Shown one piece after another: positions 34,807-63,605 of a stretch of DNA of 64,000 nucleotides. Under the pieces are notes generated by a model that ran no database searches, was not told the DNA's origin, and saw only the letters and a list, made by a program, of their open reading frames with translations. The stretch's first letter is position 1. Each line of letters starts with the position of its first letter. Source of the stretch: Pseudomonadota bacterium (GTDB lineage: Bacteria > Pseudomonadota > Alphaproteobacteria > Rhizobiales > Rhizobiaceae); the NCBI GenBank assembly GCA_039822005.1, contig JBCBMZ010000001.1, positions 353,939 to 417,938 of the forward strand, in the 5' to 3' direction. The translations under genes were made by a program, and so were the position numbers.

Positions 34807-34833
34807 TTTCAGCGTTGAAAGCAGATATCAGCG

Positions 34834-34936: not shown

Positions 34937-35083
34937 CAAGACCAGCGCAGCCATGCCGTCTGCCGATAGGCATTGGTTATGAATATCGAGTAGCCATTTT
35001 CAGGATTCGCGATTACCTCCGTATAAAAGACGAAATCACAGGCTTATTGGTCTGCATTCTCATTGCGGATAAAGTGTGTTTAG

Positions 35084-37597: not shown

Positions 37598-37611
37598 TTG
37601 ACAAATGTCAA
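37598..37611 (+). promoter_or_regulatory. Palindromic operator / -35 element TTGACAAATGTCAA upstream of the transketolase-RLP operon
   Basis: 6-bp inverted arms (TTGACA/TGTCAA) with a 2-nt spacer, 37 nt upstream of the GTG start. The 13-mer TTGACAAATGTCA recurs at 52592. The 10-mer TTGACAAATG recurs at 56046-56055 on the minus strand. Confidence 0.55.
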
Positions 37612-37647: not shown

Positions 37648-38583
37648 GTGCTGAACGAGAAAACCACCGAAGAAGTGGCGCTGGGCATTCGCCGCCGCGT
37701 TTTTGAACATTCCATGCGCAACAATGGCGGCTATTTGAGCCAGGCCTGCTCGGCCGCTGAACAGCTCGCCTTTTTGTACAATGAAGCGCTCAATCTCGGT
37801 CAGCCAACACTGCCGCCCGTGCCCAAACCGTTTGGAGGCGTGCCGTCCGCTGACAACACGGATTATCATACGGGAGCCGGCTATAATGGCCCGTTTGAGG
37901 CGCACTATGATCGACTGTTTATCGCACCAGCCCACTACGCGTTGGTGGCTTACGCAACGCTCATCGAGGTCGGACGGATGGATCCGGCGGGCCTTGAAAT
38001 GTTCAACAAGGATGGCTCCTCCGTCGAGATGATCGGCGCGGAGCATTCCCCCGGCATGGAAGTGCACAATGGCACGCTTGGCATTGGTCTTTCCACGGGC
38101 GCAGGCCTCGCCTTCGGCCGCAAGCGACGCGGCGAGACGGGTCAGGTCTGCGTGTTCATGTCAGACGGTGAAGTGCAGGAAGGCCAAACCTGGGAGGCCG
38201 TGCAGGCTTGCGCCCACCATGGCATCGACAATGTCTGGGCGCTCATGGATGTTAACGACCAGCAATGTGATGGAGCGATGGATAGCGTGATGGAAGTGCG
38301 CGATATCAAGGCCAAGTTCGAAAATTTCGGCGCGGTGTGCGTGGAGATTGACGCTCATGATTTGGATGCGATGCGCCAAGCCAAAGCGACATCTCACCAG
38401 GGACAGCCACTCATCATCCTTGCGCGTTCATCGCCGACACAAGGCATGGCGTTCTTGCAAAGACGGTTTCCCCGCCTGCACTATGTGCGCTTCAAATCGG
38501 ACGATGAGCGCGCTGAGATGAATGCGGCGATTGCCAAAGAGTTGGGCGTTCAGCCTGTCGATTACGGGCAAGGGGGGCACTGA
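37648..38583 (+). CDS. Transketolase, N-terminal (ThDP/PP-binding) subunit
   Basis: ThDP-binding region (MSDGEVQEGQTWEA...DVNDQQ). Split-TK architecture. GTG start at 37648 with a GGGAG SD. Confidence 0.85.
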   Translation: MLNEKTTEEVALGIRRRVFEHSMRNNGGYLSQACSAAEQLAFLYNEALNLGQPTLPPVPKPFGGVPSADNTDYHTGAGYNGPFEAHYDRLFIAPAHYALVAYATLIEVGRMDPAGLEMFNKDGSSVEMIGAEHSPGMEVHNGTLGIGLSTGAGLAFGRKRRGETGQVCVFMSDGEVQEGQTWEAVQACAHHGIDNVWALMDVNDQQCDGAMDSVMEVRDIKAKFENFGAVCVEIDAHDLDAMRQAKATSHQGQPLIILARSSPTQGMAFLQRRFPRLHYVRFKSDDERAEMNAAIAKELGVQPVDYGQGGH

Positions 38584-38584
38584 C

Positions 38585-39589
38585 ATGGTCGAAATGGTCA
38601 GCCGCCCATACGCGTCAGCATTTGAAAAATTCGCCGCAGGAAATCCGGACATACTTTGCCTGTCCGCCGATCTGACCTCGTCCTGCGAGATTGATGGTTT
38701 TCGTGACCGGCACCCCGAGCAATTTGTCTCTTTGGGTATGGCAGAGCAAAACATGATGAGCTTTGCCGGTGGGCTAGGCTTGGCCGGTTTCCGCCCGTTT
38801 CTTCACTCGTTCGGCGTCTTCCTTTACCGCCGCCCCTATGATCAATTGATGGCGTCTGTCGCCTACCCGAGGCGCAAGGTGCGCCTCATGGGATTTTTGC
38901 CGGGCATTACAACGCCGGGGGGCATGACGCACCAAGCCATTGAAGATATCGCAGTGATGCGTTCAATTCCGAACATGACGATCCTTGAAACCGGCGATGC
39001 CACGGAAGTGGAAAGCATTTGCGAAGCTGCCGACTCCATCGATGGTCCGGTCTATTGTCGCGTGTTGCGCGGGTCTGTACCGCGGTTGTTTGATACGCCC
39101 ATTGCAGTAGGCCACATGCGCGAATTGTCATTGGGCAGCGACGTCCTGATCGTAACATCCGGCATTACCACCGAAGAAGCGCTGCGCGCCCGCCAGGCGC
39201 TAGAAGATGCCGGAGTGTCGATCCGCCACGTCCACATCAACACCATCAAGCCTTTCGACGAAGACGCGCTGCTCGACCATATTGGCTCTGTATCCAAAGG
39301 CGTCATTGTACTGGAAAACCATGTCACCGAGGGAGGCGTTGGTTCGCTCGTCGCCGAGATTATGGCCGACAATGGCGCCGGCAAAAAGCTCGTGCGGCTC
39401 GGGTTGAAAGACACCTACGCCCATGGCGGATCGCGACCCTATCTGATGAAGCATTACGGCCTCGACGCGTCTGCCTTGGTGGCCGGCATTGAGAGACTTT
39501 TGGGCGCTGATTTGAGCGTTGCCGACGAGCAACTCACCGAAGCGCGCGTCGATGCGGTCCACTCAGCTGTCAAGGCGGAGGCACTGTAA
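38585..39589 (+). CDS. Transketolase, C-terminal (pyrimidine-binding) subunit
   Basis: GMAEQNMMSFAGGLGLAGFRPF motif. The ATG lies 1 nt after the stop of the N-terminal subunit gene. Confidence 0.85.
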   Translation: MVEMVSRPYASAFEKFAAGNPDILCLSADLTSSCEIDGFRDRHPEQFVSLGMAEQNMMSFAGGLGLAGFRPFLHSFGVFLYRRPYDQLMASVAYPRRKVRLMGFLPGITTPGGMTHQAIEDIAVMRSIPNMTILETGDATEVESICEAADSIDGPVYCRVLRGSVPRLFDTPIAVGHMRELSLGSDVLIVTSGITTEEALRARQALEDAGVSIRHVHINTIKPFDEDALLDHIGSVSKGVIVLENHVTEGGVGSLVAEIMADNGAGKKLVRLGLKDTYAHGGSRPYLMKHYGLDASALVAGIERLLGADLSVADEQLTEARVDAVHSAVKAEAL

Positions 39590-40720
39590 GTGCCGACGGA
39601 TGGTCGTTTTCGCGTCACCTACTTGATTGTTGCGGGTGACGAAAAAACAGCGCGAGAACGCGCCGACGCTGTTGCTTATGAGCAAACTGTCGAGGTGCCG
39701 GATGATGTCATTCCCGACGGCTACATCCGCGATGAAATCGTTGGCCAGATTGAGGCCGTTGAACCTTCGGTTGATGGACGCTGGCGCACGACCATTTCCT
39801 ACTCACCGGACAGTGTTGGTCTTGAGGTGATCCAACTGTTGAACGTCATGTTCGGCAACTCGTCTATCCAGCAGGGCGTTGCGGTTGACGGCTTTAAGCC
39901 GGGCCCGGTCATAAGCGCGCGTTTTGGCGGCGCGCGTTTTGGCGTGAAAGGCTTGCGCGAACTGACGGGCACCAAACGTGGCGGCTTGATTTCACCCGTC
40001 ATCAAACCGCAAGGCTCGTCCGTCGCGGCCTTAGCCGGCGTCGCCGGTCGATGCGTTGCGGGCGGTGCCGACATCATCAAGGATGACCACGGGTTAACCA
40101 ACCAGAAGATGGCCCCGTTTGCCGAGCGACTACAAATTGTCGGCGATGCTGTGCGCGAGGCCAATGCCAAAAATGGGCGCTCGGCGCTTTATTTCATAAA
40201 TATAAGCGGCTGGTCGGGCAATCCGGTGGAAGAAGCATTTCAAGCCAAGGAAGCCGGTGCGGGTGGCGTTCTCATCATGCCGGGACTGCTGGGCTATGCG
40301 CTCGCGCACCGGCTGTCATCCGACCCGGACTTTGGCCTGCCCATCATGACGCATCCGTCATTTACTGGTCCGTTCGTTTTGAACGCCGAAACCGGCATGA
40401 CTCACGCCATGCTGTACGGCACGGTTCAACGCTTGATGGGGGCTGACATTTCGGTGTTTCCCAATGTCGGTGGGCGCTTTGGTTTCTCCCGCGAGGAATG
40501 CCTCTCGATTGCCGGCGCCTGCCGTGATGCAGACGGGATCGGGCAACCCATGATGCCCTCGCCAGGCGGTGGCATGAGCGTGGATCGTGCGGCGGATATG
40601 GTGGAGATGTATGGCCAGGATGTCGTTTATCTGATCGGCGGCAGCCTTTTGCGCGCGGGCGACAAGATCGGCGACGCCGTCAAGGCGATGCGTGACGCGG
40701 TGGATGCGGCTCAAAGTTAG
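39590..40720 (+). CDS. RuBisCO-like protein (form IV RLP), short 376-aa variant
   Basis: RuBisCO large-subunit TIM-barrel signatures: VIKPQG (cf. KPKLG), GGADIIKDDH (cf. GG.DF.KDDE) and MTHPSF (cf. the His-rich strand). The GTG start immediately follows the transketolase stop codon. Confidence 0.8.
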   Translation: MPTDGRFRVTYLIVAGDEKTARERADAVAYEQTVEVPDDVIPDGYIRDEIVGQIEAVEPSVDGRWRTTISYSPDSVGLEVIQLLNVMFGNSSIQQGVAVDGFKPGPVISARFGGARFGVKGLRELTGTKRGGLISPVIKPQGSSVAALAGVAGRCVAGGADIIKDDHGLTNQKMAPFAERLQIVGDAVREANAKNGRSALYFINISGWSGNPVEEAFQAKEAGAGGVLIMPGLLGYALAHRLSSDPDFGLPIMTHPSFTGPFVLNAETGMTHAMLYGTVQRLMGADISVFPNVGGRFGFSREECLSIAGACRDADGIGQPMMPSPGGGMSVDRAADMVEMYGQDVVYLIGGSLLRAGDKIGDAVKAMRDAVDAAQS

Positions 40721-50506: not shown

Positions 50507-52570
50507 CTAGCGCAGAGCTGCTTCAATATTCCCGCCATCAACGGTCATGACGTGGGCGGTGGTTCGTTCCGCTTTTGCTAGTGCCACAAAGGCATCGGCC
50601 ACATGGCGCGCTTCAACTTCTTTGCGCAAGAGATTGCCCGCCATATAGTCAGCTTCGGAAACACCGCGCGCTGATGCGCGGGATTTGATGAAATCCTCGT
50701 CCAACAGCCCCGACCTGATCCGGTCGGCGTTCACGCCGTTGACGCGGATATGGTCGCCGCCAAGTTCCAGCGCGAGTTGGCGTATCAAAAAGAAGGTCGC
50801 CGCTTTCGGCAGTCCGTAGGCCCCGAAACCTTTACCGGGATTGACCGCCTGTTTCGACACGTTGAAAAGGATTTGACCGCCATATCCCTGACGACGAAAA
50901 ACGCCGGTTGCCGCCTTTGCCATCTCGCGATGCGCAAAAAAGTTCACCTCAAATGACTGTCGAAGGGCGGGATCATCCAGTTCCAGAATATTGCCCTGCA
51001 ATGCGTAGCCTGCGTTCGAAACCAGAACATCAATACCTCCGAAGCGGCCTGCCACCGCTTCAATGGCCGACGCGGCAGCGCCCTCCTGTGCAAGATCTGC
51101 GGTAACTGGAAACGCACTTGCGCCCAAGTTCGCTCCCGCGTTGAGGCAAGCCTCTTCATCTCGATCAATCAACGCTATTGCGGCACCTTGCGCGGCAAAA
51201 ACCTTGGCCGTTGCAAGACCAATCGCGCCCGCACCACCTGTCACCGCAACCACTTGACCGGTGAAAGGTTTTGTACTGGCCTTGGATAATTTGGCCTGTT
51301 CCAAAGACCAATATTCCATGTCGAAAAGATCATCCGTGCCGATCGGATGAAAACCGCCGGCAGCTTCGCCCAGCGACATGACTTCAATCGCTTGCTCCGC
51401 GATATCGGCGGCCGTCGATGCTGCCTTGGCGTCTTTCCCGATGCCTGCGATCCCCACACCCTCTATCCACGCGACGCACGGGTGCGGCTCCAGCATGATT
51501 TTGTGCCCACCGACCCGCAAATTTTGCTGATCAAACATGGCGCGGTAAGCGTCGGCATAGGATTGCACTTTGCCTTTTAGCGTCTCGCTACCCGCAATTA
51601 TGTCATCTTGCGTCAAAACCAGCATTCGCCCTTTTGTTCGAATGACATGATCGGGCGAACCAACACCGCGCTGGCTGAGCGCAGTCAAATCGCTGTGCGC
51701 CAGGAATTGCGAAATGATTGGTCCGGTTCGTAGGTCTGTCACTACAGGTATGGGATCTTTATCATGGTGGTGGCCACGCAGGTCGGCTATCGCGCCGCGC
51801 ACAACAGGCAGAATTTGCGCTGCAGTCTTGTGCGGTGTCCTTGAGCGATGGACACTCGTTGAAAATGTGCGGCCGTTCGCTCTGTGTGCGAGCCATTCCT
51901 CCACAAGGTTGGTATGCTCGATTACACGGCCATAGCTTTCTTTTGCGGTGTCGCCGAAGGTGAAATGGCCATGCTTTAACAGAACCATACCGTCACATTC
52001 GGGGTTGGCATCAAACACGTCTGCGGCTTTTTTGGCGAGCGCAAAGCCGGGCATGATGTAGGGCACGCAAACCAATCGCCCCTCAAAAATCTCGTCTACC
52101 GCTGTTTCGGCATTGGGCAAATTGGCCAGTGCCAGAAAAGCCGTGGCATGGGTGTGGTCGACAAAACGATGCGGCAGATAGGCATGCAGCAATGTTTCCA
52201 CCGATGGATTGGGCGACATTGTATCAATTAGATTGGCGCGCTGCACATTGACCATGTCTTCATCTGACAGGGTATTAAGTTCCCGTAACGCCATCAAAGG
52301 CTCCATACGCACACCGGGTAAACCAGGTGCTTCAATGGTATCCAGATCCCAGCCGGACCCTTTGACATGCAGAACATCGATTGGGGTGCCAAACAGATCG
52401 CGGCGCGCAGTCTTGACCGAAGTGTTGCCGCCCCCATGCATAACCAAATCAGGATCGGCGCCGATGATACGCGATGAATATACCCTTTCCGCAACGAGCC
52501 TGTCGGCCTCATTATCGGCGGTGGACGCCCATTTGGCAGCGTCCAAATCGTTCCACAAATTGGGTCGCAT
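50507..52570 (-). CDS. Bifunctional class II aldolase-like / short-chain dehydrogenase fusion (RhaD-RhaEW/YuxG-like)
   Basis: N-terminal aldolase/adducin-like region of about 430 aa. C-terminal SDR with TGGAGAIG, NAG and YGLPK (YxxxK). Confidence 0.85.
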   Translation of the reverse strand: MRPNLWNDLDAAKWASTADNEADRLVAERVYSSRIIGADPDLVMHGGGNTSVKTARRDLFGTPIDVLHVKGSGWDLDTIEAPGLPGVRMEPLMALRELNTLSDEDMVNVQRANLIDTMSPNPSVETLLHAYLPHRFVDHTHATAFLALANLPNAETAVDEIFEGRLVCVPYIMPGFALAKKAADVFDANPECDGMVLLKHGHFTFGDTAKESYGRVIEHTNLVEEWLAHRANGRTFSTSVHRSRTPHKTAAQILPVVRGAIADLRGHHHDKDPIPVVTDLRTGPIISQFLAHSDLTALSQRGVGSPDHVIRTKGRMLVLTQDDIIAGSETLKGKVQSYADAYRAMFDQQNLRVGGHKIMLEPHPCVAWIEGVGIAGIGKDAKAASTAADIAEQAIEVMSLGEAAGGFHPIGTDDLFDMEYWSLEQAKLSKASTKPFTGQVVAVTGGAGAIGLATAKVFAAQGAAIALIDRDEEACLNAGANLGASAFPVTADLAQEGAAASAIEAVAGRFGGIDVLVSNAGYALQGNILELDDPALRQSFEVNFFAHREMAKAATGVFRRQGYGGQILFNVSKQAVNPGKGFGAYGLPKAATFFLIRQLALELGGDHIRVNGVNADRIRSGLLDEDFIKSRASARGVSEADYMAGNLLRKEVEARHVADAFVALAKAERTTAHVMTVDGGNIEAALR

Positions 52571-52591
52571 GTTCTATCTCCCACGCCTTGT

Positions 52592-52605
52592 TTGACAAAT
52601 GTCAG
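52592..52605 (+). promoter_or_regulatory. Operator / -35 element TTGACAAATGTCAG in the divergent aldolase-SDR / sorC promoter region
   Basis: Same 13-mer as at 37598. A related half-site, TGTCAAATGT, lies at 52613-52622. It is 22 nt from the aldolase-SDR start and 36 nt from the sorC start. Confidence 0.55.
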
Positions 52606-52640
52606 CAAGGTCTGTCAAATGTTTACCCGGAGGAATTGGT

Positions 52641-53615
52641 ATGTCATTAGAGGCGTCCCGGCGCACACAACGCATGGTTAGTGGTGAGGACATCGTCATC
52701 GAAGCTGCGTGGCTGTACTACCACGACAGCTTGAACCAGAACGATATCGCGGAACGGCTTGGCGTATCGCGCGCCACTGTGGTCAATTATCTGCAAGAAG
52801 CACGTGAGCGCGGTTTTGTGCAAATCAGCATGTCGGCCGACGCTTTCAGCGGACACCGCCTTGCAATCGCAATCAAAGAGCTTTTTGGCTTGGACGATGT
52901 ACTCGTAATTCCCGACGGCAAACTATCTGTCGATCAAGCGGCGAACCGCGTTGCCCGCGCTGCTGCACGTTGGTTGCCTTCCATGCTTGCACCGGGCGAC
53001 CGATTGGGCGTTGCGTGGGGCAAGACGATCTACGACGTTGCGGAAAATTTGGAACCCGTCGCCATACCCGATCTGACGGTGCTCCAGTTGGTCGGGTCAA
53101 TGGCGACGCCTTACGGATTTTCCGCCGATGTTTGCTCCTCCTATGTGGCGCGGCGCTTGTTTGCGCGTTGTATCAATTTGCATGTACCGGCGATCGTCTC
53201 GACGCCGGAAGTTGCCGACGTCTTGCGCCGCGAAACCCTCATCGCCAGCCAGTTTGATGAGATAACGCGCTTCAACAAGACGCTGTTTGCTGTTGGCTCG
53301 TGTTTGCCAGACAGCCACGTGGTTTCGTCCGGCGTGGCAACGGTTGCCGAACTGCAATGGTATGTGGATCAAGGAGCGACCGGTGTGCTGTGCGGGCGGT
53401 TTATTGACCGCAATGGCAAAGGCATTGAAGGCCCGCTCGATGCGCGCATGATGGGCGTTTCAGTCGATATGATGCGCAGTCGCGAAACGGGGATTTTGGT
53501 TTCGGTCGCAGCCGATCGCGTTCCTGCTACGGTGGCAGCCTTGCGCGGTGGCTACGCGACACACCTTGTCACCGATCAGTCGAGCGCGGAAAAGCTGTTG
53601 ACTTCAAGCAGCTGA
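52641..53615 (+). CDS. SorC/DeoR-type sugar-binding transcriptional regulator
   Basis: N-terminal HTH ([24 protein letters not shown]) and a C-terminal sugar-phosphate-binding domain. The start was set at the ATG at 52641, which has a GGAGGA SD. Confidence 0.85.
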
Positions 53616-54707
53616 ACGCCTTTCGGGGAACAGAGTTAAAAGACCTTCCGGGCTCGCATCACATACACCGCGTTCCGTAATCAGGCCGGTGATGAGACGG
53701 GCCGGCGTCACATCAAAGGCCGGGTTGCCGCCGGGCGTGCCGTCGGGCGAAATTTGCACAAATCCCGTCTCGCCATTTTCCTGTTTGCCGAAAATGTGCG
53801 TGACCTCCCGTCCATCACGCTCCTCAATCGGAATTTCCTTCAAGCCATCCTTGACGGTCCAATCAATGGTCGATGATGGCAACGCAACATAGAAGGGAAC
53901 GCCATTGTCGCTGGCGGCCAACGCTTTGAGATAGGTCCCGATTTTGTTGCAAACGTCGCCACGCGCTGTCGTTCTGTCGGTGCCAACGATCACCATATCC
54001 ACCTGACCATGCTGCATCAGATGTCCTCCAGCATTATCGACAATCAAATGGTGCGGAATGTCATTGCCGACCATCTCCCACGAAGTAAGCTGTGCGCCCT
54101 GATTGCGCGGCCTCGTCTCGTCCACCCAAACATGGATCGCAATGCCGGCTTCCTGCGCGTGATACATCGGCGATGTCGCCGTTCCCCAATCGACCGTCGC
54201 GAGCCAACCCGCATTGCAATGGGTCAGCATATTGACAGGCTCGCCGGGCCCTTTGGTTTCTGCAATCCGTTTGACGATCTCCAATCCGTGGACGCCGATC
54301 ATTCGGTTGCACGCGGCATCTTCATCGCAAATCAGCGCCGCCTTTTTAAACGCTGCCTCGGCACGATCTGAAGGTGCCAGAGAGTCCAATTCTGAACGCA
54401 TCGCATCGAGTGCCCAGCGAAGATTGATCGCCGTCGGTCTGGTCGCATGCAAAATATCATAGGCATGGTCGAGCGCGCCATCGGAGGGGTCACGCGCCAT
54501 TTGCTCGGCAACGCCATAGGCTGCGGTCGCGCCAATCAGGGGCGCGCCCCTTACCCACATGTCACGAATGGCCGTTGCAAACGCATCAAGAGACTTGATG
54601 GAGACGATCTTGAACTCATGGGGCAGCCAGCGCTGATCGATGATGCGCACGTCGCCCGTTTCAGAATCGCGCCATATGGAGCGGTAGTGGGTGCCTTGAA
54701 CCTTCAT
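53604..54707 (-). CDS. mtnA: S-methyl-5-thioribose-1-phosphate isomerase family (MtnA/DrdI-like)
   Basis: eIF-2B-related family: [42 protein letters not shown]. Confidence 0.88.
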
Positions 54708-55969
54708 ACTTTGCCTCCCGTTTCCATTTGACGGGCCATCGCAACCACGCGATCCACGCCGCCAATTGCTTTGCGGTTGAGCACCAGTGAGCGTCCAAGT
54801 CTGAGCGCGCGCTCCTCCAGGATAGCCCGTTCGTCTTCATCGGCAATCGTATCCAGTTCAGCGACGTGCGCGAGGCCAAGGATGCGCCTGTGCATTTCGA
54901 TACCGGCAAATCCCAAAAGATCCTCCAGAATTTCGTTTAGCAATTGCTCAAGCGCTGCATCTGCAGCTTCCGGCTGACCTTGATCTTCGTACAAGGAATG
55001 AGGGTAGAGGATGCCCGTACGTTCGGTTCGCCAAAGCGTTGCAAATTCGTCGCAAAAAGCGGTCCACGTATCGGTTGTTTGCTGGAGGATCCACTCTTGG
55101 TAGCCCGCGCAGACGTCCATGTCTTTCAGGTGGGCGGACGCTGCCTGGTAGGCCATCAGATAGTTGCCGATCAGCATGCCGATATCGAAACCAAAGGGAC
55201 CGTAGAAGGCAAATTCCGGGTCGATCATACGCGCTTCATCGGGTGTTGCCATGATGGAACCCGCATGCAAATCGCCGTGGCACATCGTTTCCTGTTTGGC
55301 GGTGAAAGCCCGCTTCATGTGCTGTGCTTCAACTTTTAGCAAATGATCGGCGCGCAACTCTGCAACTACACTATCCAACTGAGGGGTTGTGTGCCGGTTC
55401 ATTTCCGCATCGAAATAGGGGTCGGTGAAAACAAGGTTTTCAGTAATGTCGCAAAGTTCGATGTTGCCCGAAAAAAGCGCCACATCTTTTTTTTTGTCAC
55501 CGGCATTCATGGACAGATCTGAGCCGCGAAACGCCGTGCGCGCGCAGAACCGACCCATTGTCTCGCCCAGCTTGGCAACCTTTTGGCCAGCCATCATATG
55601 ATGGCGCAATATAATATGCGGATGGAGGCGTTCCATCACAATCAACGCCTGCTCTTCGTCAAAGTGCAGGATCGCAGGAACGGATCCAGGGTCGCGCTCC
55701 TGCTGGCGTTTTAGGGCATGATATTCGAAAAACGCGCGCTTGAGCGGTAGCGGCCAGGAATCGCCGACCAAACGCACATACGGCAGCGCCTGCTTGACGA
55801 TCACTGAACCCTTCGTGCCCTCAACGATGAAGACTAGATTAAGATTACCGTCTCCCACTTCCTGAACGGACCAGGATGCGGGATCCTCTCCTACGACACT
55901 GGTCAAAGCATCCAGCGAACCAAGCCGTACAGGAAGCGTTTCCTGTGACAGTGCTTCATATTGCGACAC
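54704..55969 (-). CDS. mtnK: S-methyl-5-thioribose kinase family (MtnK/DrdK-like)
   Basis: [11 protein letters not shown] and KQALPYVR signatures, catalytic HGDLHAGS. There is a 4-nt overlap with mtnA. Confidence 0.88.
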
Positions 55970-56041
55970 CTGTTTCCTCCCATGATCCAGGTGAAATAAA
56001 CACCAATCCGCGGTTGTGTCTTCGCATCGTATGAAGCCGAT

Positions 56042-56075
56042 CAGGCATTTGTCAATATAGCTTGACTTTTGTCAG
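56042..56075. promoter_or_regulatory. Two copies of the TTGAC-N4-GTCA element in the divergent mtnK / ABC importer promoter region
   Basis: The minus strand at 56055-56042 reads TTGACAAATGCCTG. The plus strand at 56062-56075 reads TTGACTTTTGTCAG. Confidence 0.5.
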
Positions 56076-56106
56076 GTGCACTGTTGTGATTGCCTTGGGA
56101 GGAACT

Positions 56107-57630
56107 ATGAAGCCGCAGCTTTGTCGCATTGACGGGCTTGAAAAGGCGTTTGGACACAATCGTGTTCTGCGCGCATTCTCGCTGGATTTGAACGGTGGTG
56201 AAGTCACCGCGCTCATGGGTGCAAACGGTGCCGGCAAATCCACTTTGGTGAAAATCCTCTCGGGTGTTTATCGTCGCGATGCCGGCTCAATTGCGCTTAA
56301 TGGGCAAGCCTTCCTGCCCGAAACGCCAGCGCAGGCCATGCGCCAGGGCGTTGTCACCGTTCATCAGCATATCAATGATGGCGTCATTCCCGATCTCGAC
56401 GTGGCTTCAAACCTGCTCATAGATCGTTTGGCCGAGCCCAGCTACGGCTTCCTCTTGCGTCGAGGCAACATGTTTCGTGAAGCGCGCAAGATCGCGGACA
56501 CGATGGGCCTTCAAATTGATGTGCGGGCACCGGTCTCCAGTCTTGGCGTCGCAGACAGACAGCTCATCGCGATCGCCCGCGCCATGTCGCACGAGCCATC
56601 ATTGCTGATCTTGGATGAGCCGACATCGTCATTGTCTGCCTCCGAGGCTGAACAGCTTTTTGCTCTGGTCGACACGCTCAAGCGGCAGGGCGTTGCCATT
56701 TTGTATATTTCACACCGCATGTCGGACATTCGCCGTATCGCGGATCGGATTGTGTCCATGCGCGACGGCGAGGTTTCAGGTGTTTTTGAAGGTCAGAACC
56801 TCGACTATGAAGGCGCCGTCCACGCCATGCTGGGACACACCATGACCGATGTTGATATTGACGTTCCTCAGCAAGGCGAGCCGATCCTGACCTTGCAAGA
56901 CACAAGACTGAAAGAAGGTGCCGCACCTTTTGATCTGACGCTGCATGATAATGAGGTGGTGGTTGTCACCGGCCTGCTTGGCAGCGGCAAGACGGCGCTG
57001 GCCCAGTCGCTTTTTGGCCTGTCCAAGATTGCGGGCGGGCAAATCACACTCAATGGTCAGACCTATCGACCGCGTGATCCGCAACAGGCCATTGCACGCG
57101 GCGTTTTCATGTCGGCCAAGGACCGCGCGGACAATGCCATCGTGGCGGACTTCGACATTTCACGAAACATGTCGCTCCCGTTTTTGCCTCAATTTTCGAC
57201 CGCCGGCTTCATCAAGCGGCGCGAGGAACTGACATCTGCGCGTCATCTTGTCGACGCTCTGGCGGTTGTTTGCCAGTCCGAAGGCGATGACATCAACACG
57301 TTATCAGGCGGCAACCAACAAAAGGTCATGCTGGCGCGCTGGCTGTCGCAATCATGCAAACTACTGCTGTTGGATGAACCTTTCCAAGGCGTCGACATTC
57401 GCTCGCGCCGTGACATCGGTGCCAAGATACGCTCAACCTCGAAAGGTAGGGCGACGTTGGTGTTTGTCGCTGAGCTTGATGAAGCTTTTGAGGTGGCGGA
57501 TCGGATTGTGGTGATGCACGACCACTCCATCGTCGCGGAGTTCATCAATCGCAATGTCGATCTCAACGCAGTTCTGGCTGCTGTTACCGGCAGCACACAA
57601 GATTTTATGAAAACGGGTGTTGCTGCATGA
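56107..57630 (+). CDS. Sugar ABC transporter ATPase (RbsA-like, duplicated)
   Basis: Walker A GANGAGKST, and a second half with LSGGNQQKV. The start was set at the ATG at 56107, which has a GGGAGG SD. Confidence 0.88.
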   Translation: MKPQLCRIDGLEKAFGHNRVLRAFSLDLNGGEVTALMGANGAGKSTLVKILSGVYRRDAGSIALNGQAFLPETPAQAMRQGVVTVHQHINDGVIPDLDVASNLLIDRLAEPSYGFLLRRGNMFREARKIADTMGLQIDVRAPVSSLGVADRQLIAIARAMSHEPSLLILDEPTSSLSASEAEQLFALVDTLKRQGVAILYISHRMSDIRRIADRIVSMRDGEVSGVFEGQNLDYEGAVHAMLGHTMTDVDIDVPQQGEPILTLQDTRLKEGAAPFDLTLHDNEVVVVTGLLGSGKTALAQSLFGLSKIAGGQITLNGQTYRPRDPQQAIARGVFMSAKDRADNAIVADFDISRNMSLPFLPQFSTAGFIKRREELTSARHLVDALAVVCQSEGDDINTLSGGNQQKVMLARWLSQSCKLLLLDEPFQGVDIRSRRDIGAKIRSTSKGRATLVFVAELDEAFEVADRIVVMHDHSIVAEFINRNVDLNAVLAAVTGSTQDFMKTGVAA

Positions 57631-58688
57631 GCGCGGAAGCAAAAGAACTCGGCACCAGTTTGGGCGCACCCAAAGGAAGTCAGGGTCCGACGCTGATTGA
57701 TTTGGCAATCCGCTATGGCTTCTTAACACTTCTTTTGGGGTTGGTGATCTTTTTTTCGATCTTTGCAGACGGCTTTGCCGGGCCAAGATCCGCCGTCTTC
57801 ATTTTCCAGTCTGTGGCGATCACGGGCATTCTGGCGCTGGGTGTGACTTGTACACTGGTTGTGGGCGGATTTGATTTGTCGATTGGCTCCGTTGCGACAT
57901 CAGCCATGATGCTTGCCGCCTATGTGATGGTTGTCATGGAACAATCGGCAGTGGTCGCCATTTTGGCCTGTTTGGCGATGGGCGCTGCCATTGGTTTCAT
58001 CAACGGAATGTTGATCGTACGTTTCAAGGTGCCGGATCTACTGGCAACGCTTGGCATGATGTTTCTGCTCGTGGGATTGCAACGCATACCGACCGAAGGG
58101 CGCTCCATCTCGACCGGTATGACACTGCCGAGCGGCGAGACAGCCAATGGCGCCTTCTCGCCGCTCTTTTTGTCGATGGGCCGCCACCGGTTCGATTTCA
58201 TTTTGGAAAACCTGATCCCGATTTCCGTGGTATTTTTGATTGTGATCGGCATTTTGGTCTGGGCGTTTTTGGAGCTTACCCGCCACGGCCGCCTCATGTA
58301 CGCGATCGGTTCAAATGAACGGGCAGCGGCACTGACTGGAACAAATGTCAATCGCTACAAAGTGTATGCTTATATGATCTCAGGCGTTCTGGCCTCAGTG
58401 GGAGGGCTGTTGCTGGCTGCACGCCTTGGGCGCGGTGACATCGCATCGGGCACCAACTTGCTGCTCGATGCTGTGGCGGCGGCATTGATTGGTTTTGCGG
58501 TTTTGGGCGCGGCCAAACCCAATGCGTTTGGTACCGCTATGGGGGCTTTGTTTGTCGGTATCCTGTTGCAGGGTCTGACCATGATGAACGCGCCATACTA
58601 CACGCAGGATTTCATCAAGGGTGCGGTGCTGGTCGTGGCGCTCGTCTTTACCTTTTCTCTGTCGGCGAGGAGGGCCGGCGGTCACTAG
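57627..58688 (+). CDS. Sugar ABC transporter permease (RbsC-like)
   Basis: 10-TM profile. There is a 4-nt overlap with the ATPase gene. Confidence 0.85.
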   Translation: MSAEAKELGTSLGAPKGSQGPTLIDLAIRYGFLTLLLGLVIFFSIFADGFAGPRSAVFIFQSVAITGILALGVTCTLVVGGFDLSIGSVATSAMMLAAYVMVVMEQSAVVAILACLAMGAAIGFINGMLIVRFKVPDLLATLGMMFLLVGLQRIPTEGRSISTGMTLPSGETANGAFSPLFLSMGRHRFDFILENLIPISVVFLIVIGILVWAFLELTRHGRLMYAIGSNERAAALTGTNVNRYKVYAYMISGVLASVGGLLLAARLGRGDIASGTNLLLDAVAAALIGFAVLGAAKPNAFGTAMGALFVGILLQGLTMMNAPYYTQDFIKGAVLVVALVFTFSLSARRAGGH

Positions 58689-58717
58689 CAAATCGTCATG
58701 CAAGGGAGGAATCAAGC

Positions 58718-59767
58718 ATGAATATTTTTCGAAGAACGTTTTTGGGCATGGCAGCGGGCGTCGCCGCAGCCGTGGTCACAACAGGCGCATCCTTTGCGCA
58801 ATCCATGCCCGCGCCACTCGACAACGCGGGAGACGTAAAAATCGCGCTTGTGCGTTACCTTTCGACCGGCGACTTTTTCCAAGCCTATTTGTCTGGCGTG
58901 GAAAAGCAGGCAGAAGCACTTGGCGTTGATTTGCGTGTCTTTGACAGCCGTCAGGATGCCGCTTTGCAAGCTGATATGGTCGACCAAGCAATTGCGCTCG
59001 GTGTTGATGGCATTGTTATCCAGCACGGTTTGACGGAAAGCATGAGAGAAGCGGCACAACGGGCAGTTGATGCAGGCATCAAGGTTGTCGCATTCGACGT
59101 CAACGTTGAAAATGACGCCATTCCGCAGATCGAACAGTCCGACTACCTCTTGGGCAAACTGGCGCTGGAGCAAGCCATCAAGGACAATGGCGATTCGTGG
59201 AACGCGGGATATGTCTATGTACCCGGCATCGCGCCACTCGACCGTCGCCATGTCGCTTGGGAGGAGGTGAAGGAAGCCAATCCGGGTATCGTCGAGAAGG
59301 CGCAAATGGGCACGCTCGACAATCCGATTGCCAACTCCAACGCCAATCAGGCGCGCTCTGTGCTTCAGGCCAACCCGGACATCAGCGTCTTTTTTGCCCC
59401 CTATGATGAGTTTGCCAAAGGCATCAAAATCGCGTTGGATGAAGCGGGCATGTCGTCTGATGTTTCCATCTATTCGGCAGACGTTTCGACCGCTGACATC
59501 AATTTGATGCGCGAGCCAGGCAGCGCCTGGAAGGCGACCGTTGCGACCAATCCTGCCGTCGTGGGGGAAGTGTCTGTGCGCGCCTTGGCGATCATGTTGA
59601 CCGGCGGTGACCCGGGTGCACAAGTTGTTGTACCACCGACCCTCATTACGCAGGAATTCCTGAACGAGAACAACATCACCAACATGGAAACCCTGTCAGC
59701 CCAGATGCCACAGTTTGCCCATGCCGATGTGGCGATGACCGATTGGATGCCTTTGCCATCGCGCTAA
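58718..59767 (+). CDS. Periplasmic sugar-binding protein (RbsB/family 2-like)
   Basis: Signal peptide (RRTFLGMAAGVAAAVVTTGASFA) and a periplasmic-binding fold pattern (KIALV...DGIVIQHG). Confidence 0.85.
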   Translation: MNIFRRTFLGMAAGVAAAVVTTGASFAQSMPAPLDNAGDVKIALVRYLSTGDFFQAYLSGVEKQAEALGVDLRVFDSRQDAALQADMVDQAIALGVDGIVIQHGLTESMREAAQRAVDAGIKVVAFDVNVENDAIPQIEQSDYLLGKLALEQAIKDNGDSWNAGYVYVPGIAPLDRRHVAWEEVKEANPGIVEKAQMGTLDNPIANSNANQARSVLQANPDISVFFAPYDEFAKGIKIALDEAGMSSDVSIYSADVSTADINLMREPGSAWKATVATNPAVVGEVSVRALAIMLTGGDPGAQVVVPPTLITQEFLNENNITNMETLSAQMPQFAHADVAMTDWMPLPSR

Positions 59768-59779
59768 AGGGATCCTCCC

Positions 59780-59819
59780 GGAGCGGGGTCACGGCTTCGG
59801 CTGTGGCTCCGTTTCTTTT
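59780..59819 (+). terminator. Intra-operon hairpin plus T-tract between the binding-protein gene and the fucU-like gene
   Basis: GGAGC...CACGGC-TTCG-GCTGTG-GCTCC stem (one bulge and one G-T pair), followed by TTTCTTTT. Confidence 0.45.
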
Positions 59820-59840
59820 GATGCAGGGCAGGAGAGGAAA

Positions 59841-60284
59841 ATGCTGAAGGGTATTGACCCCCGTATAACGCCGGAACTGATGGATTGCCTTGTTCGGTTG
59901 GGCCATGGCGATGAGATCGTGATCGCGGACCGCAATTATCCGTCCGCCTCTACCGCTTCCGACTGTGTGATGCCGGACGTCATTCGCATGCCTGGCATGT
60001 CCGCCCTCGAGGTGGTCGAGTTGATCACACAGCTGATGCCGATTGACAATTTTGCCGATTATGGTGCGTTGCGCATGGAAGAAGATGGGAAGCCCGATTT
60101 CCAAAATGACTGCCACAGGCAAGTGTTCGATGTGTTGCGCCAAGTCGCGCCTGAAGGAACGCATTTAAAAAGCATCGAGCGGCAGGATTTTTATGCGCAT
60201 GCCCGCAGCGCATTTGCCGTGATTTCCTGCTCGGAAGACCGGCCATTCGGGTGCTTTATTTTAAGGGCGGGTGTGGTTTTTTGA
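59841..60284 (+). CDS. RbsD/FucU-family sugar mutarotase/pyranase
   Basis: 147 aa. The N-terminus MLKGIDPRITPELMDCLVRLGHGDEIVIADRNYP matches the FucU/RbsD signature (GHGDE.V..D.N.P). Confidence 0.8.
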   Translation: MLKGIDPRITPELMDCLVRLGHGDEIVIADRNYPSASTASDCVMPDVIRMPGMSALEVVELITQLMPIDNFADYGALRMEEDGKPDFQNDCHRQVFDVLRQVAPEGTHLKSIERQDFYAHARSAFAVISCSEDRPFGCFILRAGVVF

Positions 60285-60337: not shown

Positions 60338-61837
60338 TCAGCGAGTTGCGGTTGCTTCCATTTTGTCACTTATTTGCCCGAGAGCTTGACTGACACCGCG
60401 ATCCTTAAGTGTTTCAACCGATCGCTCAAATGCGGCTGCAAAGCGAACGTTGTTTGCAAGGTCGCCAAAATACTTCTGTTGTGAAATCCAGAAAATTGGT
60501 TTTTTCAACGATATTTGCGCTGCAGACTTAAGACCTCCTGCCGACGGATCATTGGGTGCGATCTTTGAGCCGTCTTCGCGTATGCCAAGACAATAGCGCA
60601 TCCATAGCGCGCTCATAAGGGCCAGGCACTCAACCGGATGACCGTTTGCCAAGGCATCGCGAATAGAAGGGACAATAAAACCTGATTGTCGGCTGGAGCC
60701 GTCGAAAGCAACGCGCCGCGTTGTATCGATAATCTCCGGGTTTGAAAAACGTCTTTCAATCAGATCCAAATATGCTGATGGCGTCATACCCTCTACGGGC
60801 CGAACGTTAGGGACGATCTCTTGGATCATCGTCTGGTTGAAAAACCCACGGATCCCAACATGGCTCATGGAATCGGAAATTGTTTCAATACCCAGAAGAT
60901 CACCGGGAATAGATACGATCTGATGGCCACCGTTCAGGACACGTAACTTCATCGCCTCATAGGCATGAACTTGATCGGAAAAAGTAGCGCCGACCATGTC
61001 CCAGTCAGGACGCCCGGCACAAAAACTATCTTCGATTACCCATTGGCGGAAGTTTTCATGGGTTACGGGCGCCACATCATCGACGCCAAAATTGTGCGCC
61101 AAAGCTAGTTCATGGCGACCCGTGGCCGGTACAATGCAGTCAACCATGGAGTTGGGGAATGTGCAGTTCTTGTCGATCCAAGAAGCCAGTTCAGGGTCGG
61201 ACAATTCGGCAAGCGAAACGATTGTAAGGTGAAGGATGGCGCCATTGCCCTGCAAATTGTCGCAAGACAGGGCGGTGAAAGGTCCGATACCCGTATCACG
61301 TCTTCGTTTAAGAGCGGCAACCATGGCACCAAAAGCGGTTCGCGGCGCGTTCGGATTTGCGCCGTCATGGACAATGTCGGGATGGCTCGCGTCAAAGCCG
61401 CCGGTTGCCGGGTCAGTATAGTACCCGCCTTCGGTGACCGTCAGCGAGACAATGCGAATGTCTGGCTGCGTCATACGTTCAATCAGCGAAGCATTGTTTG
61501 GTTCAACGGGTACGAAATCGATCATCGACCCGGTGATCTCAGCTGACTTGCCGGATGGATCGAGCTCTATGAGGGTCGTGAGGCAGTCCTGCGCAAGCAA
61601 GCGTTCACGCTGAATGGCATCAGCTGGTCGAACGCCTGCACCGACAATGGCCCAATCGTGTGCGAGACCCATCTCCATGAGACGATGCAAATACCAAGCT
61701 TGATGGGCACGATGGAAATTGCCCAATCCGATGTGCACGATGCCAGCGCTCAGGCCACTTCGGTTATAGTTCGGCACTTTCACATGGGACGGAATCTGCC
61801 CAAGCGTTGCGTCGCGCAGTGGAACTAGCTCATCCAT
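60338..61837 (-). CDS. mtlK: Mannitol dehydrogenase family (mannitol 2-dehydrogenase-like)
   Basis: GLGNFHRAHQAWY N-terminal motif and a length of 499 aa. It lies downstream of smoS, as in the Rhodobacter and rhizobial smo operons. Confidence 0.8.
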   Translation of the reverse strand: MDELVPLRDATLGQIPSHVKVPNYNRSGLSAGIVHIGLGNFHRAHQAWYLHRLMEMGLAHDWAIVGAGVRPADAIQRERLLAQDCLTTLIELDPSGKSAEITGSMIDFVPVEPNNASLIERMTQPDIRIVSLTVTEGGYYTDPATGGFDASHPDIVHDGANPNAPRTAFGAMVAALKRRRDTGIGPFTALSCDNLQGNGAILHLTIVSLAELSDPELASWIDKNCTFPNSMVDCIVPATGRHELALAHNFGVDDVAPVTHENFRQWVIEDSFCAGRPDWDMVGATFSDQVHAYEAMKLRVLNGGHQIVSIPGDLLGIETISDSMSHVGIRGFFNQTMIQEIVPNVRPVEGMTPSAYLDLIERRFSNPEIIDTTRRVAFDGSSRQSGFIVPSIRDALANGHPVECLALMSALWMRYCLGIREDGSKIAPNDPSAGGLKSAAQISLKKPIFWISQQKYFGDLANNVRFAAAFERSVETLKDRGVSQALGQISDKMEATATR

Positions 61838-62598
61838 TGGCCACCATCCACATTATAGGTCTGGGCAACGATGTAGTTGGCTTCATCACTTGCAAGAAAC
61901 ACAGCCATACCGGTCAGGTCGTCGGGGGTGCCCATGCGTCCGAATGGTACGCCTGCGCCGACCTCCTTCTTTTTCTGACCGGGCGCCTTTTTTTCGAACT
62001 TGGCGAAAATGGCGTCCACACCGTCCCAGTGCTCGCCATCAACCACACCTGGCGAGATCGCGTTCACGTTGATGCCATGTTTGATGAGATCAAGGCCAGC
62101 CGATTGGGTGAGCGAAATGACGGCCGCTTTGGTCGCGCAATAGATAGCCACCAAGGGTTCGCCGCGACGACCCGCTTGGCTAGCCATATTGATGATCTTC
62201 CCTTTGATGCCATAGTCGACCATGTGCCGAGCAACGGCTTGCATCGTAAATAGCGTGCCAGACACATTGATTGAGAATGTCCGGTCAAAATCACGTCGTT
62301 CAATCTCCACGATCGGTGCGGCGGTAAAGATCGCGGCGTTGTTGATCAAAATGTCGATCTGGCCAAAACTCCTTACACACTCGTCGACTGTGTCATCTAT
62401 GCTCTCTTGTGACGTGACATCCAGCTTGACCGCGGTAGCATGATCACCGATTTCAGCTGCGGTGTCTTGCGCGCCGACAAAGTCGATGTCGGCAATAGCG
62501 ACCCGCGCACCTTCTCGTACATAGGCCTGCGCAAATGCCTTGCCGATGCCTCGTGCGGCACCGGTTATGACTGCGGTTTTGCCAGCCAAACGGTGCAT
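61825..62598 (-). CDS. smoS: SDR-family sorbitol (L-iditol) dehydrogenase
   Basis: TGAARGIG, NNAA and YCATK motifs. The operon context supports the call. Confidence 0.8.
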   Translation of the reverse strand: MHRLAGKTAVITGAARGIGKAFAQAYVREGARVAIADIDFVGAQDTAAEIGDHATAVKLDVTSQESIDDTVDECVRSFGQIDILINNAAIFTAAPIVEIERRDFDRTFSINVSGTLFTMQAVARHMVDYGIKGKIINMASQAGRRGEPLVAIYCATKAAVISLTQSAGLDLIKHGINVNAISPGVVDGEHWDGVDAIFAKFEKKAPGQKKKEVGAGVPFGRMGTPDDLTGMAVFLASDEANYIVAQTYNVDGGQWMS

Positions 62599-63605
62599 CA
62601 GATGCGCAACCCCTTGTCGTCAAATTTGTGCACTTGGCTCGACTCCGGCGTCAGATAAACCGTATCCCCGTGGTCCACATTCATCTCTCCATCTGTGCGC
62701 ACCGTCATCGGGTCGCAGCCGCCGATGCCGTGTACATGCAGAAAGGTGTCGGAACCCAAATGCTCGGCGACCCCGACAGTGCCCTGCCACGCGCCTTTCG
62801 AGACTTTTGTTGACACTTTAATATGTTCCGGGCGCACACCAATCGATTGTCCGCCCAAACGACCAGCTTCTTCACCCTCGATAAAATTCATCTTCGGCGA
62901 ACCGATAAAACCGGCCACAAATTTGTTTGCAGGATGCTTGTAGAGCTCGAGCGGCGACCCAACTTGCTCGATCACGCCTGCTTGTAGCACCACGATCTTG
63001 TCGGCCATCGTCATGGCTTCCACCTGATCGTGCGTCACGTAAATCATCGTCGTGCCCAAACGATTGTGCATCTCGCTAATCTCAAGCCGCATACCCACGC
63101 GCAGCGCGGCGTCCAGGTTGGAAAGCGGTTCATCGAAAAGGAAGGCTGTCGGGTCGCGAACAATGGCCCGGCCGATGGCAACACGTTGTCGCTGGCCACC
63201 CGAGAGTTGCCCCGGCTTACGGTCTAGATAATCCGTCAGGTTCAGTGCTTTTGCAGCCGCCTCGATTTTGGCGTCTTGCTCTGCTTGCGGCATCCCGGCC
63301 ATCCGCATCGGGAACGCTATGTTCTTGCGAACCGTCATATGCGGATAAAGCGCATAGGTTTGGAACACCATGGCCAACCCGCGCTTGGATGGCGAAACCT
63401 CTGTTACATCCTGATCATTGATAAGGATGCGGCCTGACGTTGTTTCCTCAAGCCCGGCGATAAGTCGCAAAAGGGTAGACTTGCCGCAGCCGGAAGGTCC
63501 GACAAACACCGCAAACTCACGGTCTTCAATTGTCAGGTTGATCGGTGGAATGACTTGTGTTTCCCCGAAACTCTTGGTGACATTTTCTAAAACGATACGT
63601 CCCAT
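62598..63605 (-). CDS. smoK: Carbohydrate ABC transporter ATPase (MalK/UgpC-like)
   Basis: [23 protein letters not shown], and a C-terminal TOBE/MalK regulatory domain. Confidence 0.88.

Follow-up and report, generated by a model that had tools for sequence, protein, structure and literature searches.

A 64-kb stretch of DNA from a marine alphaproteobacterium of the family Rhizobiaceae (referred to below as the window) carries an eight-gene cluster at positions 50507-60284 and, about 10 kb upstream of it, a three-gene module at 37648-40720 that encodes a split transketolase and a RuBisCO-like protein (RLP). It is, in our judgement, reasonably probable that the two loci make up one regulon with a two-branched pathway for the uptake and catabolism of 5-methylthioribose (MTR) and/or 5-deoxyribose, both derived from S-adenosylmethionine (SAM). 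The core of this pathway is likely to be of the dihydroxyacetone phosphate (DHAP) shunt type, and we are rather confident that the transketolase/RLP module belongs to the regulon.

The eight genes were called from the open reading frame (ORF) map and from profile scans with Pfam and NCBIfam, which recovered every gene of the layout described in a first-pass annotation of this DNA with the same coordinates and strands. A 687-aa fusion of an Aldolase_II domain and a short-chain dehydrogenase/reductase (SDR) domain is encoded on the minus strand (50507-52570), followed on the plus strand by a 324-aa MtnR-like regulator of the SorC family (52641-53615; Sugar-bind domain, PF04198). The genes of an MtnA-type 5-methylthioribose-1-phosphate isomerase (53604-54707) and an MtnK-type 5-methylthioribose kinase (54704-55969) lie on the minus strand, and four plus-strand genes encode the ATPase of a CUT2-type sugar ABC transporter, which has two ABC domains (56107-57630; Pfam ABC_tran, twice), a permease (57627-58688; BPD_transp_2), a periplasmic binding protein (58718-59767; Peripla_BP_4), and an RbsD/FucU family protein (59841-60284; PF05025, RbsD_FucU, 106 bits). 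Two of the listed starts were corrected, namely that of the regulator to the ATG at 52641 after GGAGGA (ORF listed from 52599) and that of the ATPase to the ATG at 56107 after GGGAGGA (ORF listed from 56062). The annotation had also stated that the window lacks the dehydratase, enolase-phosphatase and dioxygenase of methionine salvage, and the scans agreed with it: among essentially all large ORFs of the window, neither a stand-alone class II aldolase or MtnB, nor an MtnC-type HAD protein, nor an ARD/MtnD cupin was detected, nor were MtnN and MtnP. The set of MtnB, MtnC (or MtnW plus MtnX) and MtnD that makes up canonical methionine salvage was accordingly not present among these ORFs.

The kinase and the isomerase surpassed the curated equivalog cutoffs of their families by wide margins, with 492 bits for MtnK (TIGR01767, cutoff 275) and 416 bits for MtnA (TIGR00512, cutoff 279; 475 bits with NF004326). 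In the PDB, the kinase matched 2PYW, deposited as 'Uncharacterized protein' and presumably the Arabidopsis MTR kinase, with an E value of 2.5e-94, and the methylthioribose kinase 2OLC, which we take to be the B. subtilis enzyme, with an E value of 7e-72. The cluster hence holds both entry enzymes of a DHAP shunt by type, a 5-substituted ribose 1-kinase (MtnK/DrdK) and an isomerase of aldose-1-phosphate to ketose-1-phosphate (MtnA/DrdI).

The importer points to the same class of sugars. The best PDB sequence match of the binding protein was 4RY8 (E 7e-64, 37% identity over 317 residues), the title of which reads '5-methylthioribose transporter solute binding protein TLET_1677 from Thermotoga lettingae'; 5ULB ranked next, and ribose-binding proteins followed with E values of 1e-13 or worse and about 24% identity. 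The AlphaFold2 model of the protein (pLDDT 81) also had 4RY8 as its top Foldseek hit, with TM scores of 0.79-0.86. A full-text literature search found no paper treating 4RY8. The binding protein scored far under all named ribose, allose, rhamnose and fucose models of NCBIfam, the ABC ATPase fell under each named sugar-specific cutoff, and all 120 binding-protein homologues among the matches listed were at least 79% identical. The binding protein is therefore predicted to take 5-methylthioribose and/or 5-deoxyribose, and the earlier suggestion that the importer serves a 5-substituted ribose is supported by the 37% identity to its nearest solved relative as against about 24% to ribose binders. 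The FucU-like protein reached 69 bits with the L-fucose mutarotase model, under its cutoff of 141, and matched FucU-family structures with E values of 1e-20 to 1e-22; it is a predicted anomerase of the imported furanose. DrdK and MtnK-type kinases are reported to take both 5-deoxyribose and MTR (PMC6079011).

In the 687-aa fusion, a linker domain joins a class II aldolase domain of the RhaE type (residues ~13-233) to an SDR domain (~436-687); the Pfam domain spans are 39-224 and 439-680. This order of Aldolase_II, linker and SDR in a single chain of about 680 aa is that of RhaEW, and the protein passed the separate curated equivalog NF006192 (870 bits, cutoff 639). It scored 448 bits against the RhaEW equivalog TIGR02632, below the cutoff of 568, and its gene is not in a rha locus; its neighbours are mtnA, mtnK and the MTR-type importer. 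RhaEW enzymes convert rhamnulose-1-phosphate into DHAP and lactate with NAD+, are inactive with NADH, and need NAD+ for the formation of any DHAP (PMC3870299). In an alignment of 12 orthologues, residues E125, H139, H141, H200 and H202, as expected of a metal-dependent class II aldolase, were invariant, as were the TGGAGAIG motif, D469, S572, Y585 and K589, the set of a classical NAD-type SDR. A PDB search with the aldolase domain gave a single match, 3M4R (an uncharacterised protein), and no match to FucA, RhaD, DrdA or MtnB structures. The Ald2/DrdA-type (FucA-like) aldolase of the known shunt was not found, as the domain is of the RhaE type and there is no Ald2 orthologue; the aldolase role of the fusion may nevertheless be analogous to that of Ald2.

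The orthologous cluster of Dinoroseobacter shibae supports this assignment. Two separate proteins, a FucA-like aldolase of 231 aa and an aldo-keto reductase of 359 aa, are encoded there at the place of the fusion, while the MtnK, MtnA, permease and binding protein of that cluster are 59%, 68%, 76% and 80-85% identical, respectively, to those of the window. Because different modules stand beside orthologous importer-MtnK-MtnA-regulator clusters in this locus (L084, 2176-3947) and in that of Roseobacter denitrificans (L086), which has no adjoining aldolase, the downstream module appears to be interchangeable. The swap in D. shibae is the strongest contextual evidence that the fusion would act as an aldolase combined with an aldehyde oxidoreductase, and the earlier proposal of a DHAP-shunt-like core, in which MtnK and MtnA are joined by a class-II-aldolase-type enzyme with its own aldehyde oxidoreductase, is supported by it.

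The first-pass annotation had treated the island as self-contained and had overlooked the transketolase/RLP module; with this module included, the pathway is probably branched and not a plain DHAP shunt. The module was found by tblastn of Hoeflea proteins against the window. It comprises the N-half of a transketolase (thiamine diphosphate (ThDP)-binding, 311 aa; 37648-38583, plus strand; Pfam Transketolase_N), its C-half (pyrimidine-binding and C-terminal domains, 334 aa; 38585-39589, plus strand; Transket_pyr and Transketolase_C), and a 376-aa RLP (39590-40720, plus strand). The GTG at 37648, preceded by GGGAGA, was taken as the start of the N-half in place of the one listed for the ORF at 37549, which is too early, and the resulting protein aligns with orthologues of 309-315 aa. 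The C-half is 87% and the RLP 67% identical to the Hoeflea orthologues. The best PDB match of the N-half was 6YAK, the N-chain of the split transketolase from Carboxydothermus (E 2e-29); the C-half matched 6YAJ at 1e-55 and 1-deoxyxylulose-5-phosphate (DXP) synthases at about 1e-28 to 1e-30. In related loci, the split transketolase genes always lie directly 5' of the RLP gene.

The RLP was closest to 3QFW ('Rubisco-like protein from Rhodopseudomonas palustris', 378 aa), with an E value of 3e-73 and 41% identity, and this was also its top Foldseek hit. The two proteins share the motifs K-P-Q, K-D-D-H, H-P and GGRF. MtnW enolases matched at 1e-30 with about 25% identity and R. palustris rlp2 (2QYG) at 7e-24, and the best NCBIfam model, MtnW, gave 165 bits against a cutoff of 409. 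We infer that 3QFW is R. palustris RLP1, because 2QYG is already named rlp2; with 3QFW taken as RLP1, the nearest characterised relative is a DeepYkr protein and not MtnW, a Photo-type RLP or OiaX. A D-apiose-type RuBisCO-like protein was rejected, as the OiaX model gave 64 bits against a cutoff of 700. R. palustris has two RuBisCO-like proteins, of which RLP1 (DeepYkr) is the 5-methylthioribulose-1-phosphate 1,3-isomerase that forms 1-methylthioxylulose-5-phosphate and runs parallel to the Ald2 branch (PMC5893883). Aldolase and RLP branches stand side by side in R. palustris as well as in R. rubrum, and 53% is shared between their RLP1 proteins (PMC5893883).

A shared palindrome connects the module with the cluster. 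The regulator is a full-length homologue of E. coli YjhU/MtnR (37% identity over 318 residues, E 5e-77), and its gene adjoins the divergent fusion gene and lies beside mtnK/mtnA, as expected of an MtnR. YjhU was renamed MtnR once it was shown to repress mtnK-mtnA-ald2 of E. coli (PMC12632272). A palindrome of 13-14 bp, TTGAC-WWW-TGTCA(A), occurs at three promoter positions and at no other promoter of the window: TTGACAAATGTCAA at 37598-37611, a putative operator 37-50 bp 5' of the start of the transketolase N-half; TTGACAAATGTCAG at 52592-52605, in the 70-bp divergent gap between the fusion and regulator genes; and TTGACTTTTGTCA at 56062-56074, in the divergent gap of mtnK and the ABC genes, 33-45 bp 5' of the ATPase ATG. 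With TGACNNNTGTCA as the search pattern, 6 strand-matches were counted in the 64 kb where 0.52 were expected, a number that not one of 100 shuffles reached. The sole non-promoter copy, TGACGGCTGTCA (58942-58953, minus strand), lies within the binding-protein gene and keeps its position in many orthologues, which may be due to constraint on the coding sequence or to an operator inside the gene. Adjacent to the 56062-56074 palindrome, TTGACA at 56055-56050 also forms the -35 hexamer in the best promoter-like sequence of mtnK. In about 36 related loci the palindrome motif precedes the fusion gene by ~30-65 bp, and it is kept in the ATPase/mtnK gap of related loci. It also stands between the binding-protein gene and the transketolase N-half gene in two of them (L003 and L045); Hoeflea sp. 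G2-23 has variants of it 5' of the N-half, and Paracoccus isoporae has them at both promoters. We read the palindrome as the operator, probably, of the adjacent SorC-type regulator.

To survey the relatives, species-representative genomes were scanned with an alignment of fusion orthologues, which gave 80 loci, all from marine Alphaproteobacteria. Carriers among the Rhizobiales are Hoeflea, Lentilitoribacter, Oricola, Oceaniradius, Roseitalea, Maritalea, Pannonibacter and Cohaesibacteraceae, and those among the Rhodobacterales include Ruegeria, Roseovarius, Antarcticimicrobium and Parasedimentitalea. MtnA was encoded beside the fusion in 68 of the 72 loci with at least 3 kb upstream, and MtnK, the regulator and the binding protein were present in 57, 58 and 50 of the 80 loci, respectively. 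Of the 45 loci that offer 1.5 kb or more past the binding-protein gene, 29 had transketolase and/or RLP genes immediately after that gene or after fucU, arranged convergently to the importer operon or as part of it; the single-operon order is ATPase, permease, binding protein, (FucU), transketolase N-half, C-half and RLP. The cluster runs on into RLP and split transketolase genes in Hoeflea phototrophica and in metagenome-assembled genomes (MAGs) of a Paracoccaceae and a Cohaesibacteraceae member, and the mtnA-fusion pair stands alone in some Ruegeria and Roseovarius genomes. Clustering of all ORFs from the 80 loci revealed no further recurrent partner. Conserved as it is across these loci, the cluster layout is beyond chance. 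In the closest relative (L004), the fusion is 80% identical and the RLP gene lies 1.5 kb from fucU. The 9.8-kb block 50509-60280 of the window is inverted relative to L004 2287-12062, and it is parted from the RLP gene by some 10 kb with unrelated genes (those of a PhnS2/T2/U2-like ABC system, MltB, recR and dnaX).

Several side observations concern the module. In Paracoccus isoporae (L089, 4408-13245), the importer, transketolase and RLP genes form one co-directional operon, followed by genes of a GntR regulator and a Cys_Met_Meta_PP protein (pyridoxal phosphate-dependent sulfhydrylase/lyase family), which could be relevant if methanethiol were a product. On an ENA metagenome contig (L090, 3057-18295), the trio of transketolase N-half, C-half and RLP (59% identical) is part of a different sugar cluster. 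Along with a CUT2 importer of its own and a SorC regulator, this cluster encodes two kinases, one of the PfkB family and one a xylulokinase-like FGGY kinase, as well as an AraD-like protein (245 bits, cutoff 251) and a Zn-dependent and an Fe-dependent alcohol dehydrogenase, and it has TGACAAAAGT-type repeats at its promoters; this context fits a module that may act on analogues of pentulose-5-phosphate. In the window itself, an agmatinase gene (36523-37530, plus strand; TIGR01230, 183 bits, cutoff 174) lies directly 5' of the transketolase operon. Its co-transcription with the operon was rejected, since a 117-bp gap with its own palindrome and ribosome-binding site separates them and agmatinase occurs near no related locus, so that the adjacency looks like a by-product of rearrangement. 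Agmatinase belongs to the polyamine route that produces 5'-methylthioadenosine (MTA).

On the basis of these data, we propose the following route. The SorC/MtnR-like repressor would probably act at the TTGAC-WWW-TGTCA(A) palindrome, and the CUT2 ABC importer, with its MTR-type binding protein, is predicted to take up the sugar. The FucU-like protein would equilibrate the furanose anomers for the kinase; MtnK is predicted to phosphorylate the sugar at C1, and MtnA to convert the aldose-1-phosphate into the 5-substituted ribulose-1-phosphate. In the first branch, the RhaEW-like fusion would cleave this ribulose-1-phosphate into DHAP and acetaldehyde or 2-methylthioacetaldehyde, and its NAD-type SDR would act on the aldehyde immediately; by analogy with the conversion of lactaldehyde by RhaEW, oxidation to acetate or methylthioacetate is the most likely outcome. 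In the second branch, the DeepYkr-like RLP would turn the same ribulose-1-phosphate into a 1-substituted xylulose-5-phosphate, which the split transketolase, more speculatively, might cut at C2-C3 into glyceraldehyde-3-phosphate and a ThDP-bound C2 unit. This cleavage was proposed because 1-methylthioxylulose-5-phosphate matches the configuration of xylulose-5-phosphate, that is, it has the D-threo configuration of the normal transketolase donor. The transketolase chemistry is put forward tentatively. An equally tentative extension is a 'transketolase shunt' for SAM by-products, in which the RLP would form 1-methylthio- or 1-deoxyxylulose-5-phosphate and the split DXS-like transketolase would then take the place of the cupin methylsulfurylase of R. 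rubrum, with the fusion as a parallel, carbon-only branch. In such a shunt, the methylthio C2 unit could eliminate methanethiol in a phosphoketolase-like manner, and the sulfur could return to methionine synthesis. If the model is true, the fusion would be the first enzyme of a DHAP shunt that is dedicated to processing the aldehyde, and the transketolase/RLP module would amount to a portable unit that handles 1-substituted pentulose-5-phosphates.

The succession of kinase, isomerase and aldolase is the logic of the published DHAP shunt and of the Drd pathway (PMC10986504, PMC6079011). Like the shunt of extraintestinal pathogenic E. coli (ExPEC), R. rubrum and R. palustris (MtnK or MtnP, MtnA and Ald2), the window has a kinase, MtnA and an expected aldolase step to DHAP and an aldehyde. 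The E. coli shunt also has a SorC-type regulator, MtnR, 37% identical to that of the window, and the use of an external sugar, shown in E. coli, is another likeness. Unlike these shunts, the window has a RhaE-type aldolase domain unrelated in sequence to Ald2, with an SDR fused to it for the aldehyde step, as well as a co-regulated transketolase/RLP module; it further differs from the E. coli shunt in that the cluster includes a dedicated ABC importer and a FucU-like gene, whereas neither an ABC system nor a mutarotase turned up in a search of the 2025 E. coli paper (PMC12632272). The Drd pathway of Bacillus thuringiensis (DrdK-DrdI-DrdA) follows the same three-step logic, with DrdA as a stand-alone FucA-like aldolase in contrast to the fusion of the window. 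According to Beaudoin et al. (2018), Drd clusters occur with sugar transporters, and in Denitrovibrio also with a fucose mutarotase homologue, and salvage of exogenous 5-deoxyribose was suggested; searched by terms, the paper returned neither an aldolase-SDR fusion nor a transketolase (PMC6079011). The view of the first-pass annotation that scavenging of exogenous sugars would be an uncharacterised variant does not hold, as it was already proposed in 2018 (PMC6079011) and E. coli grows on external 5-deoxyribose via the shunt (PMC10986504); salvage of exogenous sugar by clustered transporters and a mutarotase is already known (PMC6079011).

With RhaEW/YuxG, the fusion shares the three-part architecture, the family (NF0061xx series) and the NAD-type SDR, and a coupled cleavage and aldehyde oxidation would be expected likewise. 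RhaEW orthologues are 'always' in rha loci (PMC3870299), whereas the fusion of the window stands beside mtnK/mtnA; its substrate would be a 5-substituted pentulose-1-phosphate, and the aldehyde released would lack the 2-hydroxyl. The MTA-isoprenoid shunt of R. rubrum and R. palustris (MtnP, MtnA, DeepYkr RLP and cupin methylsulfurylase) has a short RLP of ~375 aa, as does the window, and in both systems the RLP is encoded with MtnA-type genes beside an aldolase branch; the window differs from it in having a split transketolase instead of the cupin, and a kinase and importer instead of a phosphorylase as the entry. TLET_1677 of Thermotoga lettingae (4RY8) is the known counterpart of the binding protein, as its best match in both sequence and fold at 37% identity. 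Like the Carboxydothermus enzyme (6YAJ/6YAK), the split transketolase is encoded by two genes for the ThDP and pyrimidine domains, but it is divergent (E 2e-29 and 1e-55), has ~85 extra N-terminal residues, and is invariably paired with an RLP. Other split-chain transketolases are the apulose-4-phosphate transketolase AptA/AptB and the sulfo-transketolase SqwGH. A 2026 review describes just two characterised shunt variants and leaves the enzyme that reduces 2-methylthioacetaldehyde unidentified. In the full-text literature searched, neither an aldolase/SDR fusion nor a transketolase has been tied to MtnK/MtnA or to the DHAP shunt, so that the replacement of Ald2 by a RhaEW-like fusion and the co-regulated transketolase/RLP module appear new against that literature, although an earlier mention may exist.

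Several points weigh against the two-branched regulon. The system is known here from sequence, gene context and predicted structure alone. Neither phmmer nor BLAST detected similarity of the aldolase domain to Ald2, DrdA or FucA-like aldolases, including that of D. shibae, and the fusion is under the RhaEW equivalog cutoff. The binding protein is only 37% identical in overall sequence to the MTR-binding protein, the sequence does not separate 5-methylthioribose from 5-deoxyribose, and the RLP is only 41% identical to 3QFW. The cupin methylsulfurylase, which would be the expected neighbour of a DeepYkr RLP, was absent from the window scans and from the recurrent families of the 80 loci. The trio also occurs in the L090 cluster, which has no MtnK or MtnA, so the substrate of the module need not derive from MtnA. 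The palindrome holds TTGACA on both strands and could partly mirror -35 boxes, and further mtn genes could exist beyond the 64 kb.

Some of these points could be accommodated by a plain DHAP shunt, in which the transketolase and RLP would serve an unrelated sugar pathway and their adjacency and motif would reflect a related regulator or shared -35 boxes. About one third of the importer loci have no adjoining module, nor have those of D. shibae, Roseobacter denitrificans and Actibacterium; the L090 trio stands with a different kinase set, and the -35 consensus does lie inside the palindrome. However, the adjacency of the module is kept in both Rhizobiales and Rhodobacterales and in two gene orders, one of them a single operon, and in the window, where the module has been separated from the cluster, it still carries the exact 14-bp palindrome, the only two other promoter sites in 64 kb being those of the cluster. 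As the nearest characterised relative of the RLP also acts on exactly the product of MtnA, we consider the plain shunt unlikely, though not negligibly so. It is still less probable that the enzymes form one linear route through MtnK, MtnA and the RLP isomerase, in which the aldolase-fold domain of the fusion would be an AraD-like epimerase of the 1-substituted pentulose-5-phosphate ahead of the transketolase and the SDR would handle the C2 product. L-Ribulose-5-phosphate 4-epimerases do belong to the class II aldolase fold, an AraD-like protein and a xylulokinase-like kinase accompany the trio in L090, and the product of RLP1 is a 3:1 mixture of the xylulose and ribulose epimers (PMC5893883). 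Many genomes, however, have the fusion with MtnA alone, or the fusion without the module; in D. shibae, a FucA-like aldolase and a reductase take the place of the fusion with no module adjoining, and the tested members of the family are solely aldolases (PMC3870299).

The same genes would read as the front half of Bacillus-type methionine salvage if the aldolase domain were an MtnB-type dehydratase and the RLP an MtnW-type enolase, with the rest of the pathway elsewhere in the genome, of which 64 kb is visible. MtnB shares the class II aldolase fold, and MtnW is the best NCBIfam match of the RLP, but the latter reaches only 165 bits against the cutoff of 409, and MtnW structures match at 1e-30 and ~25% identity as against 3e-73 and 41% for 3QFW. 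The magnesium-ligand motif of the RLP is K-D-D-H, as in 3QFW; that of MtnW is K-x-D-E. The MtnB-type dehydratase, which the first-pass annotation had named as the alternative that would overturn its reading, is disfavoured by a score of only 21 bits for the MtnB model on the aldolase domain. MtnX, MtnC, MtnD and MtnE were not in the window and not recurrent in the 80 related loci, and the fused SDR would have no role in this pathway, to which we give very little credence. A conventional sugar such as ribose, L-fucose or L-rhamnose, or another 5- or 6-modified furanose, with misleading MtnK/MtnA names, is also highly improbable as the substrate. The FucU-family protein and the RhaEW-like fusion are reminiscent of 6-deoxyhexose catabolism, and the transporter is of the ribose (CUT2) type; however, the kinase and isomerase are well above the curated MTR-specific cutoffs, the binding protein is far under the ribose, allose, rhamnose and fucose models with an MTR binder as its best structure, and kinases of the DrdK type refuse ribose, fucose and 2-deoxyribose (PMC6079011). 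Rhamnose and fucose catabolism in particular was rejected, as RhaA/RhaB and FucI/FucK were not found in the window scans and the family cutoffs were missed.

The system is widespread in marine Alphaproteobacteria, including Hoeflea, Roseitalea, Oricola, Ruegeria, Roseovarius, Paracoccus and many uncultured members. MTA and 5'-deoxyadenosine are products of all cells, and MTA is a measurable marine exometabolite; a regulon that combines an importer with catabolism would make the sugar moieties of these compounds a traded source of carbon and sulfur in the ocean. The fusion is a concrete candidate for the aldehyde-converting step of the DHAP shunt. The strict pairing of the RLP with the split transketolase, linked to MtnK/MtnA by synteny and by a shared putative operator, makes the function of a large, uncharacterised RLP group directly testable.

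As for the surroundings of the cluster, a compositional, horizontally acquired island was rejected, since the region has an even GC content of 0.55-0.56 and lacks mobility genes, and scans found no riboswitch or tRNA near the cluster. A strong hairpin with a 16-bp stem and a T-rich tail, located by a consensus scan only, lies between the binding-protein and fucU-like genes (59780-59815, plus strand) and may be an attenuator or an mRNA-stabilising element that raises expression of the binding protein. Beyond the cluster, a polyol-type gene set on the minus strand (60338-63605) encodes a member of the mannitol dehydrogenase family, which stays under the cutoffs of the models for D-arabinitol 4-dehydrogenase and for fructuronate reductase, an SDR of the L-iditol 2-dehydrogenase type (430 bits, cutoff 338), and a UgpC/MalK-like ABC ATPase. 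Bacterial small signal recognition particle (SRP) RNA was found at 34837-34934 on the plus strand (RF00169, 57 bits); the 176-aa ORF that encloses it (34439-34969) has no Pfam match and is thus probably spurious. A Tad/Flp pilus assembly cluster at 10130-18655 (plus strand) encodes a prepilin peptidase, RcpC/CpaB, a secretin, CpaD, a T2SSE ATPase and two T2SSF proteins.

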